A stretch of DNA of 64,000 bases from Candidatus Aminicenantes bacterium JdFR-78 (GTDB lineage Bacteria; Acidobacteriota; Aminicenantia; JdFR-78): assembly GCA_002010665.1 (NCBI GenBank), contig MTON01000024.1:76999-140998 (forward strand), in the 5' to 3' direction. Position 1 is the first letter of the stretch; the number at the start of each line of letters is the position of its first letter. Made by a program: the position numbers and the translations under genes. Of the stretch, positions 41,694-56,300 are shown piece by piece. The notes under the pieces were generated by a model. The model did not search any database. It was not told where the DNA came from and worked only from the letters and a program-made list of their open reading frames with translations.

Positions 41694-42056
41694 ATGAAAA
41701 GAATAATATTGAAATCAAAAGTTCATGGTGCAATAGTAACAGATATTAATATCAATTATGAGGGAAGTTTAACACTTGACGAAAAAATAATGGAAAGTGC
41801 AAATCTTATACCCTTTGAGCAAGTTCACGTCTATAATATTACAAATGGAGAAAGATTCACAACTTACATAATTAAAGGCGAAAAGGATTCAGGAATAGTC
41901 TGTGTCAATGGTGCAGCAGCCAGAAAAGTTTCAGTGGGAGATAAATTAATAATAGCTTCCTATGCTCTAATAGATGAAGATAAAATTAGCTCTTTTCAGC
42001 CGAAAATTGTTATTATTGAAGGAAAGAATAAAATAAAAGAAGTCAAAGAAAAATAA
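41694..42056 (+). CDS. panD: Aspartate 1-decarboxylase (pyruvoyl-dependent)
   Basis: LKSKVHGAIVTD..INYEGSLTLD contains the Gly-Ser self-cleavage site. Confidence 0.95.
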   Translation: MKRIILKSKVHGAIVTDININYEGSLTLDEKIMESANLIPFEQVHVYNITNGERFTTYIIKGEKDSGIVCVNGAAARKVSVGDKLIIASYALIDEDKISSFQPKIVIIEGKNKIKEVKEK

Positions 42057-42112
42057 AAAATGTCTCGCATAATAATTTGAGAAAAATTTAATTCTTTTTA
42101 TTTATTTTCTTA

Positions 42113-42910
42113 ATGATTGGCAGTATTTCAATAAAACTTAAACCATTAACAGAAGTAATATGTGAAGGCAGGGGAGAAGAGCATATTTACAGATTATTTA
42201 TTAATATTGTTAAAAAAGAAAATGAAGAAATAGCTGAGCAATTTCAAAATTTTAACGAAGATTTACCTGTTACTTTATCTCCGTTCCTAAAAGGGATTAA
42301 GTACTCAAAAGGAAAAACATATGCTTATTTGGGGGAATATCCTATATTTAGGATTACTTATTTAAAAGAAGAAATTCTTGAGATTATTTTGAAAAGTTTT
42401 AATTCTTGTTATGGTAAAAAGGAATTATTAAATTTTGCAAACGGAAAAGTTCAAATTGCAAAAGTGGATATACAAAAATCCTTCTATGCAAATTTTATAA
42501 CTTTTAAAAATATTCTTTCAAATGCAGAGGAAAAAGAAAATATAGTACTCGAATTTTCCTCACCGACAATTTTCGAAATTTCGGAAAAGAGACGGCTTTT
42601 TCCAGATCCAGAAATTGTTTTCTGTTCTCTTTTAGAGAAATGGAATAAATTCTCAAGTATAAAGTTGTCTGAACAAATAAAAAATGAGTTTGGAAAAATC
42701 GAAGTAATTCAGTATAGATTGACAACTGAATTTGTAAATTTCTCCAATAAAAAAATTCCAGGCTTCCTCGGAAAGGTAAATTATAGGTTATTGAAATCAA
42801 TGGATAAAAAGATAGTGAAATATCTAAATGCACTTGCTGATTTTTCCTTTTATTCAGGGGTTGGTTCAAAGACCATAATAGGAATGGGTCAAGCAAGAAG
42901 AGCAAATTAA
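42113..42910 (+). CDS. cas6: Cas6-like (RAMP superfamily) endoribonuclease, stand-alone
   Basis: 265 aa. The C-terminal glycine-rich loop FYSGVGSKTIIGMGQ fits the Cas6 G.G....G.G motif, and LPVTLSPFLKG resembles the conserved PFtfS segment. The size fits two RRM folds. There is no obvious Shine-Dalgarno sequence. Confidence 0.6.
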   Translation: MIGSISIKLKPLTEVICEGRGEEHIYRLFINIVKKENEEIAEQFQNFNEDLPVTLSPFLKGIKYSKGKTYAYLGEYPIFRITYLKEEILEIILKSFNSCYGKKELLNFANGKVQIAKVDIQKSFYANFITFKNILSNAEEKENIVLEFSSPTIFEISEKRRLFPDPEIVFCSLLEKWNKFSSIKLSEQIKNEFGKIEVIQYRLTTEFVNFSNKKIPGFLGKVNYRLLKSMDKKIVKYLNALADFSFYSGVGSKTIIGMGQARRAN

Positions 42911-42998
42911 TTTTTATATTTAAATCTACTTTTCAAAAAAACCGACTTATATAATAGAAGGGAAAAATTGAGATAATAAAACGCATAGGGAGGCTGAT

Positions 42999-43271
42999 AT
43001 GAACAAACGTGATATAGTAACAAAAATTGCTAAAAATTCAGAAATTACTATTCGCCAAGCCGAGAAAGCCTTGAGTTCTTTTTTATTGATTGTTGAAGAA
43101 GCATTAAAAAGGGGCACACAGGTAAAATTCGCAGGATTTGGAACTTTTTCTGTTATTGAGAGAAAGGCAAGAAAAGGAAGAAATCCATGCACAGGTGAAG
43201 AGATCAAGATCCCTGAAAGAAAAATTATTAGTTTTAAACCTTCACGGAAACTTTTAAATTCCATACAATAA
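42999..43271 (+). CDS. hup: HU-family DNA-binding protein
   Basis: MNKRDIV..IA....IT..QAEKAL.....V.EAL..G..V.F.GFGTF....R.AR.GRNP.TGE.I.IP. GGGAGG lies upstream. Confidence 0.95.
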   Translation: MNKRDIVTKIAKNSEITIRQAEKALSSFLLIVEEALKRGTQVKFAGFGTFSVIERKARKGRNPCTGEEIKIPERKIISFKPSRKLLNSIQ

Positions 43272-43451
43272 TAGATAATTAAATCCAGAACATTTATAAT
43301 AAAATAAATAAACGGTTATATTGGAATAGAAAAATCCGAAATTTAGGTTTATTTTAATCATTCCCATAATATATTTTTAATTAAATTTCCTCTTGTCTTT
43401 TTACAAAAGATCAATAAAAATATAGTCTATTATATAAAGGAGGGCTTGTTT

Positions 43452-53335: not shown

Positions 53336-56300
53336 ATGACTAAAAAAAGAAAAATATTTCTTTTAATAATTCCAGTAAGCATAATTCTAGTTTTTGCTTT
53401 TAAGTTTCTAGCCCAAAATGAATGTATAGAATATAATGCAACTTTTATTGAAAGCTTTGATAATACAACGTATAAGGATTTTCAAAATTCCTCAGTTGCT
53501 CATTGGGGTGATGGATACATTACTTTAAATAGACTGGGTGCCCAGTTTGAAGTAGCATCACCTACAGGAATGGGTGCAAAAATTTATGTATGTGATGCAG
53601 GAGATTTTGATGGAGATGGCTATCCTGATTTAATTGGTTTGGATATAGCTAATAATTATCGATTGATACTTATACGAAATTATTATGAAGATCTTGATGG
53701 AGATGGACAAGATGATGACGGAGTGATCTTTTATATAGATGAAAATGAAGTTTATGATTGGGGTTTAACGGTAGGACCTGCTTCAATTACAGTAGCTGAT
53801 TACAATAATGATGGATTATTAGACTTCTTTTTCTATAAAAATAGAAGAGACGAATTTGGATATACAGAATTTGTAGCAGCAATGTATATAAATATTGGAA
53901 CATCGACTGATCCTGATTTTCGTAGATATTTTGAAGCTCCTAATTTAAATTTTACAGATAGATTTATGGAAGCTGGAATTTATTGTAATTGGGCAGCAGA
54001 TCATTTAAGTTCAATAGATATAGATAATGACGGTGATATAGATGTTTTGGTTATTAGCCAAGATAAAATATTCCTCGTAAGAAACCCTGGACCTCAAAAT
54101 TTCGACCTTAATAATTTCGAAATTTCTGAGCTCAATTATAATCAAAGAACAGGTTTTACCATAGGAAGAGGAGGTTCTTCAATAGATGCTGCTGATTTTG
54201 ATAATGATGGAGATATTGACATTGTAGGAGGCACAGTAAATGATATCGCTTATTTAGTATATTACGAAAATGATGGAACAGGATATTTCACTCGTAGTGA
54301 AATTCCAATTCCAAATCCTGACGCTACAGGAACAGTTGCAACATGTGTAGCTGATTTTAATTTGGATGGTTTTATAGATATATTTGGTGCTACTGATAGA
54401 TGGAATGCAGGAAATGAAGCTCGAATGTGGATTTTTAAAAATATAAATGGCACAGAATTTCAATTTAGATGTTTAAATGGATGTAATCCTATTTTACCTC
54501 CTCCTCACGATGTTGATATGAGCGCTTGTCTGGACTATGATCAAGATGGTGATATGGATGTGATTTTAGCAGATGCTAATCATTCCGGAGATTATTATTT
54601 GATAATTAATCAGTTAGCACCAGTTTATACATTGACAGGAATTGCTCAATCAACAAATTTAAGTGATCAATTAAATCCAGAGCAATATGCAATTACAAAG
54701 GTTAGATTTACTTCTCTCCAGCAAACATGGAGGGGAACGTATTCAAGTGATGGATTAAGAATTGATTATTATGTTTCAAATGACAATGGAAGAAATTGGG
54801 AATTTTATGCTTCTTTCATTGGTGACGAGATTCGAAATCAAACAAATCTTCCATGGCATACATTTCATCATTTTGGCTCTCAGCTTAAATGGAAGGCGAT
54901 TCTATCAGCCCCGGATGACAATATGGTTGATTATGAAAACGCTTCTTACGAAACACCTGTTATTGGTGAAGTACGGATTGAATATGTTTATGTGGATAAA
55001 AGAGAGTACTCTCGCACTTCTGTAGCTGCTACAACAGTAGAAATAAATGGAGAGACTAAAAAATTAATTATAGCTGGAAGTTTCATTTTTCCAGGGTGGG
55101 AAGGACATTTGCGAGCATATGATGTTACTAATATGACAGCTCAAAATACAACATATACAACTTTGAGAACAATTAGTAGGTCAGATTTATCTTCTCCCAC
55201 AGGGAGAGAGATTGTTGCTCAAAATGTGCAAATTTTATGGGATGCAGGAGAATTATTAGCTTCTCGCTCCCCAGATACTAGAAATATTTATACTGCAGTT
55301 TTTCAAGAATCTTCTTTTACAAGAATTGATTTTTCTGCAGATAATGTTGATGTATTAGGTCCAATTTTACAGGATGTAAATAATGATAATGTAGGTCTTA
55401 TAAATTTTATAAGAGGAGAGGGTAGAGATTGGAAATTAGGAGATATAAATCATTCCAATCCCATTGTGGTAGGACCTCCTGAAGGTGTTTCATCATTAAT
55501 GGGACCAGGATATGATACATTTAAACAGACTTGGGCAAATAGACCTAAGGTGGTTTATGTAGGTGCAAATGATGGGATGTTACATTGTTTCGATGCTCGA
55601 ACAGGTGAAGAATTATGGGCTTTTATTCCTTATAATCTTCTTCCAAAATTGAGAAATATGTGGGCTGTTGATCCAAATACAGGAGAAAGATATTTTAATA
55701 GAGATGTATATGTTGATGGTAGTCCTACAGTAGCAGATGTATATATTAATGGGGAATGGAGAACTGTTTTAATTTGCGGGCAAGGTCCAGGAAAAGGTAG
55801 TAGTATAGGAGGTTGTCAATGTGGACAAGGAAATTGCCCAAACGAATCAGAAAAAAGAAATTATTATTTTGCCTTAGATATTACGGATCCTTATAATCCT
55901 CAACCTTTATGGGAATTTACTGATAGTAAGTTAGGTGAAACTTGGTCTGTACCTGCAATTGGCAAAATTAGAAAAGACGGTAAAGATGTTTGGGTTGCTT
56001 TTGTCGGATCAGGATATGATAATGATGACGACCCACGCAATTATATAGGAAATTATTTTTATGCAATAGATATTGAAGATGGATGGCATTATTTCTGGAG
56101 ATTTGAAGCACCCGAGGTAGATACCACAGCGGAAAATGGTTTTAATATCCAAAATACAATTCCTGGTTCACCCTCAATAATTGATATAAATAGTGATGGA
56201 TATGCGGATAGAGTATATGTTGGTGATTTAGATGGCAGAATATGGAAGATTAATGTTAGTATAGAATTCAGACAGTTAAGGAGGAGAAGAACAACATGGC

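Follow-up and report, generated by a model that had tools for sequence, protein, structure and literature searches.

The 64-kb stretch of DNA analyzed here (the window) comes from a 2.53-Mb genome that is 96.8% complete (G000) and probably belongs to class Aminicenantia, its same-family relative G002 being named Ca. Aminicenantia; the window carries a gene of the Cas6 family, which we call cas6', between panD and a gene for HU:

41694..42056, + strand: panD, which ends the dNK-panB-panC-panD run and is the upstream anchor common to the cas6' loci of close relatives.
42113..42910, + strand: cas6', a full-length TtCas6A/B-type Cas6 paralog (PF10040) in which the active site and the stem-reading hairpin are eroded.
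42999..43271, + strand: HU gene (PF00216), 74% identical to a second HU gene, which on contig C4 immediately precedes the intact cas6 and its cmr operon.

The cas6' ORF starts with ATG and encodes 265 aa. It lies 56 nt past the panD stop (42056) and 88 nt ahead of the HU start (42999), where the earlier note had placed it. Contigs from other runs, neither flagged as the source, bridge both joins with zero differences (panD-cas6: X8, 41738-42249; cas6-HU: X7, 42493-43372), which rules out an assembly artefact at these positions. The Shine-Dalgarno sequence reported as lacking is truly absent, but its absence is uninformative and was rejected as a sign of decay, since none of seven copies has one, intact copies included. 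The intergenic flanks fold no better than shuffles (z = -0.5 and -0.8).

Both profile and structure support the original description of the gene as Cas6-like. The product scores 65.6 bits against PF10040 (cut-off 25, E = 7e-18) and 55 bits, just below the cut-off of 58.65, against TIGR01877, the equivalog of the functional CRISPR endoribonuclease Cas6; side matches to plastocyanin and Ceg19 (Pfam/NCBIfam) were weak, far below their own cut-offs, and were set aside. The two motifs quoted when the gene was first noticed, the Gly-rich loop and PVTLSPFLKG, are present in the product, which is basic (pI 9.2). The AF2 model (pLDDT 93) has a tandem ferredoxin/RRM fold, with TtCas6B as the top Foldseek match (TM 0.82 to 4C9D, E = 1.6e-21) and TtCas6A next (TM 0.75); these two are the best solved relatives by sequence as well. 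The fold matches also include PhCas6nc (3QJJ) and 3UFC, a Cas6-related protein of P. furiosus.

A homodimer was predicted for cas6' (ipSAE 0.64 versus 0.01 for the best control; pLDDT 91; contacts agreeing by at least 95% between runs), the ipSAE mark being one that 20 of 30 known dimers and 1 of 23 monomers reach, and the prediction being possibly an echo of the solved TtCas6 dimers. Residues 160-165, 197-205, 216, and 218 make up the predicted interface, which lies in the conserved core, with pairing via strand 197-205. TtCas6A and TtCas6B are dimers (PMC3902920).

CRISPR-Cas loci of the genome and the origin of cas6'

A repeat-spacer scan of the window, and searches for cas1, RAMP, and other cas6 genes, were negative, in agreement with the earlier note, which had seen neither an array nor another cas gene there. 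The whole contig (C1) gave no match to cas1, RAMP, or a further cas6, and, with up to 7-9 mismatches allowed, none to the three repeat types of the genome. No array or single repeat that might lie hidden near cas6' was detected in the window or on the contig, and cas6' has no linkage to a cas operon or array on C1, being in tandem with a III-B locus only in the relative L030 described below. Four imperfect 43-nt repeats at 53773-56200 of the window are coding, and by eye resemble FG-GAP/VCBS-type protein repeats, not CRISPR.

The genome-wide scan for CRISPR and cas genes proposed earlier returned two systems, type I-B and type III-B, both having an intact cas6. The type I-B-like locus on contig C3 encodes a 243-aa Cas6 of its own (PF01881) and includes an 86-repeat array. 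The type III-B locus at the end of contig C4 is ordered HU, cas6, cmr2, cmr3, cmr1, cmr4, cmr5, cmr6, a gene of unknown function, csx3, an APE2256-family gene, a SAVED gene, and a two-repeat mini-array; its cas6 is G000:C4:196158-196958 (P0008), with P0006 as the L030 counterpart. Another array, of ~19 repeats of 37 nt, lies on the overlapping contigs C34 and C39 (L021:10757-12108, L022:1-2279) with cas2 and a cas4-cas1 fusion. It has no cas6 or effector in cis and is probably served by the C4 III-B locus. The 37-nt repeats of C34/C39 and of C4 fold to the same 8-bp stem and end in the same 8-nt tag, ATTGAAAC, and we infer that the C4 Cas6 is their natural processor. Both effector loci carry a cas6, so neither is in need of one. 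The earlier note had allowed that a normal CRISPR-Cas locus without its own cas6 might explain the gene; we discarded this explanation because the I-B and III-B loci are each equipped, and the C34/C39 array fits the C4 enzyme.

Several details of these regions were recorded alongside. The C4 mini-array (L018:19725-19840) consists of a leader, two repeats, and one spacer, and its repeat differs from that of C34/C39 at 8 positions, mostly in the 5' part, the stem and tag being common. The cmr2/cas10 gene on C4 (L018:9109-11804) is split by a 1-nt deletion into 513 and 385 aa, versus 898 aa in L030; the deletion creates an ATGA stop/start overlap with zero residues lost, and the split may have produced a Cas10 that works as two pieces or a recent knockout, or may be an assembly error. 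The 3' end of the III-B locus (L018:16170-19153; L030:14670-17353) has a gene of 315-318 aa without a Pfam match, csx3, the APE2256-family gene, and the SAVED gene, which is short (193 aa). G000 has no fewer than three HU-like paralogs (window 42999-43271; C1:36514-36768; C4:195801-196070), with identities of 59-74% or higher, together with two distant IHF-like ones, and two of the HU copies flank cas6 genes.

cas6' is a duplicate of the type III-B-linked cas6, with which it shares 51% identity without gaps. In L030, a co-occurring relative (~81-85% nucleotide identity in the pan genes) from the same metagenome as the C4 contig, both copies stand in tandem, in the order dNK-panB-panC-panD-TA pair-cas6'-two small ORFs-HU-cas6-cmr2-cmr3-cmr1-cmr4-cmr5-cmr6. 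The tandem join crosses no repeat, and a second assembly supports it with two overlapping contigs. Downstream of panD in G001/L027 come an SseB_C-like gene and then a mosaic of cas6' and cas6 (L027:1620-2420 / L024), the first 180 codons being of the cas6' type (nucleotide identity of 0.82-0.91 to L105) and the 3' third of the intact type (0.79-0.90). The tandem copies of L030 indicate that the apparent housekeeping site next to panD is an old edge of the III-B locus, and the tandem and the mosaic together point to a III-B/defence-region edge where both copies neighboured and recombined. A tandem ancestor may later have been split in G000, or the reverse may have occurred; the HU paralogs do not settle the order of events, since they diverged about as early as the species (dS of 1.1 versus 0.8-1.0).

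The panD and HU neighbours stressed in the earlier note are real, but the housekeeping context that they suggested is partly an accident of rearrangement. The panD part of the panD-cas6-hup synteny was recovered in G000, L030, and G001/L027 only and is not family-wide; no cas6 was seen in the ~1.5 kb checked after panD in G002, G183, G274, and G106. A candidate Cas6 fusion in G001 (a 397-aa ORF) proved to be an artefact of a run of N, the identical DNA in L027 having two genes. G002, a relative from the same family, carries broken remnants of the cas6 3' end at three places (L025:511-598, L025:1391-1525, and L026:2386-2514); these share 85-89% identity with the intact gene and flank genes judged by eye to be nucleotidyltransferase/toxin-antitoxin-like. 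Similar 69-nt copies occur in L027, and the cas6 3' end may be a hot spot of insertion or recombination.

Active-site residues and selection

Residues of cas6' were mapped by profile alignment, in which TtCas6B His42 and His23 correspond to positions 45 and 26, and TtCas6A Arg129, Lys226, and Ser228 to positions 155, 253, and 255. Four sites are listed with their coordinates:

42176..42178, + strand: codon 22, Glu instead of the Gly that 94% of distant relatives have, located where helix alpha1 begins, in the active-site pocket.
42245..42247, + strand: codon 45, Gln instead of the catalytic His; the position corresponds to TtCas6B His42, the equivalent of TtCas6A His37.
42575..42577, + strand: codon 155, where Glu replaces the Arg that reads the major groove (TtCas6A Arg129), reversing the charge.
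42857..42892, + strand: Gly-rich loop (residues 249-260), with four Gly and Lys253 (TtCas6A Lys226) kept, and T255 (TtCas6A Ser228) changed to Ile.

The residues of cas6' at the sites considered are E22, Y26, Q45, L51 (where 80% of distant relatives have Lys), E155, I156, K253, and I255. Of 171 distant relatives, 167 have His45, and the loci sampled from these relatives mostly come with arrays or cas1. The residue is also present in all five full-signature copies of the clade that includes cas6' (9 of 30 clade members overall). The hairpin position 155/156 is R or K in 147 of the 171, versus E155/I156 in cas6'. Sites at least 70% conserved in distant relatives but eroded in the clade are G22, H45, K51, T255, M256, L108, and L168; the eroded sites are RNA-contact sites, whereas core and Gly-loop sites are retained, including the C-terminal GhGxxxxxGhG loop with its Lys (G249, G251, K253, G257, and G259 in cas6'). 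The C4 Cas6 retains G22, H45, K51, R155, and T255. Across the clade, position 45 varies freely (Q, R, N, D, C, L), and no clear newly conserved surface motif was found among the eroded copies; R20 and K/R27 in helix alpha1, with E22/E23 alongside, are common to the panD clade only and are not conserved in other eroded copies.

The doubt expressed earlier about the catalytic His was well founded, the His being absent and Q45 occupying its site. His24 was considered as a substitute and rejected: it is unique to cas6', and lies two residues off the position of TtCas6B His23, which is Y26 here and in intact copies. In TtCas6A, the H37A mutation slows cutting ~17,000-fold and weakens binding 70-90-fold, and R129A weakens binding 260-290-fold (PMC3902920). 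Together with the residues lost from cas6', these effects lead us to infer with considerable confidence that cas6' neither cuts nor reads the repeat stem. A small chance of activity remains because His-less Cas6 enzymes (SsoCas6/SsCas6) can be active via alpha1 lysines (PMC3902920).

Even so, cas6' is under relaxed but real purifying selection. It is 64% identical to its L030 ortholog, versus 80-89% for dNK/panBCD, and the pairwise dN/dS is 0.24 (95% CI 0.16-0.34), versus 0.09-0.12 for dNK/panBCD. In maximum-likelihood codon models, omega was 0.056 for the intact copies, 0.09 for the panD clade over the full length and 0.14 over the first 150 codons (which avoid conversion), and it reached 0.24 in one sister orphan clade and 0.26 in another, all estimates being based on few sequences of AT-rich DNA, with near-saturated dS and conversion in some copies. 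On the cas6' branch itself, omega was 0.12 and omega = 1 was rejected (P = 6e-8), with the caveat that a branch-averaged omega can mask a brief recent phase of neutrality. The chance that a neutral gene keeps its frame open is 0.4% after 0.2 changes per site, and 25% after 0.05. The losses at positions 22, 45, 51, and 155 are common to the whole panD clade, so purifying selection acted after catalysis was lost.

The 30 relatives form one well-supported group (100/99), in which branches are short for intact copies and long for several groups of eroded ones; a one-clade test neither rejected nor established a single origin of the eroded copies (p-AU = 0.28). Within family f8, a cas6 copy occurs in 6 of 96 genomes, a patchy distribution, the gene being kept in both members of each of two genera; no such copy was found in most of the other families searched. 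Five genomes (G106, G183, G261, G274, and G296; 81-93% complete) carry a full-length eroded copy, and cas1, cas2, and RAMP were not found in them; a PF01881 search of G183 matched only the orphan cas6 itself. MAGs often lose CRISPR loci, and the absence of CRISPR from the f8 genomes is for that reason not proven. The mosaic-bearing genome G001 (87% complete) gave no RAMP match and no matching repeat. Eroded full-length copies adjoin GH127/GH38 glycosidases, glmS, or LarA/DUF72, the neighbourhoods differing between subclades. Purifying selection outside CRISPR was found (omega 0.09-0.26), without lineage-wide retention at a fixed locus.

Two other arrangements were observed within the group. 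In the L034, L039, L109, L193, and L033 subclade, the orphan cas6 is fixed directly upstream of a gene for a GH57/GH38 alpha-mannosidase of ~1100 aa and often follows a GH127-type gene, the steadiest non-CRISPR linkage seen. In G114 (L112:8001-9743), a strongly eroded cas6, with Cys at the His site and an altered Gly loop, is located between biotin carboxylase genes and a truncated cas8b/TM1802.

Function of cas6' and comparison with known Cas6 proteins

cas6' is most likely a noncatalytic Cas6 paralog maintained by selection, neither a trans-acting processor nor a new RNase: the residues for cutting and for repeat reading are lost, yet the gene has been kept intact by selection. That it is not a working crRNA processor, which is common to the leading readings, we regard as highly probable. 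Its history began with a duplication of the III-B-linked cas6, the copy apparently lying in tandem at the panD edge of the cmr locus from which it is now separated. Five RNA-contacting residues, among them the catalytic His and the stem-reading Arg, are gone from the copy, which keeps the two-RRM core and the Gly loop and should no longer cut the 37-nt repeats, with binding far weaker than that of the C4 enzyme. It would still be made as a folded basic homodimer, probably by read-through from the pan operon, and may be retained for a noncutting role that does not require CRISPR; our best guess is a low-specificity binder of RNA or nucleic acid acting via the retained basic surface (R80, K253, R262, R263). 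We give about an even chance to cas6' being such a noncutting, basic, dimeric nucleic-acid binder with a CRISPR-independent job. More tentatively, a small clade of Aminicenantia Cas6 proteins may have departed from CRISPR, on one or more occasions; having given up catalysis and the reading of repeats, its members would now serve as dimeric RNA-binding or regulatory proteins independent of CRISPR. If so, G000 and L030 would catch exaptation midway, with parent, dead duplicate, and mosaic all visible, and would offer a tractable case.

Of the roles first suggested for the gene, service to a distant array is unlikely because the I-B and III-B systems both have an intact cas6 of their own and cas6' lacks the His and the stem-reading Arg. 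With these two residues gone, RNase activity is also unlikely, and with it the idea of a domesticated structure-specific RNase. The suggestion of a relic fits the origin of cas6' as a duplicate from the edge of the III-B locus, but not its status, neutrality having been rejected. A slowly decaying relic is still conceivable if selection acted mostly while cas6' processed crRNA or was refreshed by gene conversion, leaving no function today. This would be consistent with the end branch of cas6', the longest of its clade (0.42 versus 0.11-0.13), with the patchy distribution and unrelated neighbours, with the mosaics (products of gene conversion) and the three broken 3' remnants in G002, and with the 1-nt deletion that splits cmr2 in the same genome. 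However, ~1 synonymous divergence per site (NG86) built up among panD-clade members after the His and Arg were lost, with the frame open and omega at 0.1-0.25, and cas6' itself has no conversion tract; we consider a functionless relic rather unlikely.

Of similarly low probability is a modulator of CRISPR, a dead copy that would pair with the C4 Cas6 through its dimer surface, or compete for crRNA or effector assembly, and so damp or tune crRNA maturation. cas6' arose beside the III-B cas6, with which it coexists in G000 and L030, its predicted dimer surface falls within the conserved core, TtCas6A/B form dimers (PMC3902920), and a type III-associated Cas6 is described as suppressing type I-B interference in Thermus HB27 (PMC12102369). 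Yet sister eroded copies persist in genomes where cas1, cas2, and RAMP were not found, as does the mosaic in the 87% complete G001 without a RAMP match or matching repeat, and the R155E change should weaken repeat binding. We consider it very unlikely that cas6' is still an active endoribonuclease, working in trans through an atypical site without His on the C34/C39 array or on a new RNA. The precedent for this is the activity of His-less Cas6 with alpha1 lysines (PMC3902920); the panD clade shares R20 and K/R27, sister copies have Arg at position 45, the C34/C39 array lacks a cas6 in cis, and TtCas6A is a stand-alone active Cas6. But cas6' has Gln45 instead of Arg, and acidic E22/E23 and E155 at predicted RNA-contact sites, position 45 is freely variable across the clade, and an intact C4 Cas6 is present, the mini-array behind its cmr operon sharing the 8-bp stem and ATTGAAAC tag with the C34 repeat.

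The selected, noncatalytic paralog has a practical side. The presence of Cas6 is commonly read as a sign of CRISPR RNA processing, and a gene called cas6 that probably cannot cut is an annotation trap. From the intact parent through its dead tandem copy and the mosaic to orphans in genomes where CRISPR was not found, these genes form a natural series that bears on how Cas proteins become exapted or turn into modulators. The parent enzyme and its repeat are both in G000, which makes a direct side-by-side comparison with cas6' simple.

A literature search for orphan or noncatalytic cas6, incomplete in coverage, returned no paper on this clade. The closest proteins within the genomes themselves are the III-B Cas6 of C4 (P0008) and of L030 (P0006), the direct parent or sister of cas6' (51% identity, gap-free) and likewise next to HU; in contrast to cas6', they have intact signature residues and an omega of 0.056, and lie directly before cmr2. 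Among described proteins, TtCas6B (TTHB231, 4C98/4C9D) and TtCas6A (TTHA0078, 4C8Y/4C8Z) of T. thermophilus HB8 belong to the same PF10040 subfamily, with a tandem RRM fold and a Gly loop with Lys as in cas6', for which a dimer is predicted too. The gene for TtCas6A, like cas6', lies apart from CRISPR loci (PMC3902920). The His is retained in the two Thermus proteins, which are active enzymes, whereas cas6' has Q at the His position, E at that of Arg129, and I at that of Ser228. Cas6-2 of T. thermophilus HB27 (PMC12102369) offers a precedent: in a host with I-B and III systems, this additional Cas6 negatively regulates type I-B. Its role was demonstrated by experiment on an enzyme with cross-cleavage activity, whereas such a role would be hypothetical for cas6'.

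PhCas6nc of Pyrococcus horikoshii is, as is cas6', a noncatalytic Cas6 paralog kept beside active CRISPR systems (PMC3727216, PMC3902920), and cas6' shares with it an intact fold without the catalytic residues. It represents a different Cas6 branch (16-18% identity to cas6') and still binds repeat RNA by wrap-around, whereas cas6' has lost the stem-reading Arg too; judged by R155E, cas6' would probably bind repeat RNA poorly, if at all. Stand-alone and noncatalytic Cas6 proteins have already been described, and cas6' is not a new kind of system: in its working, it is least like the stand-alone, active TtCas6A and most like the inactive PhCas6nc.
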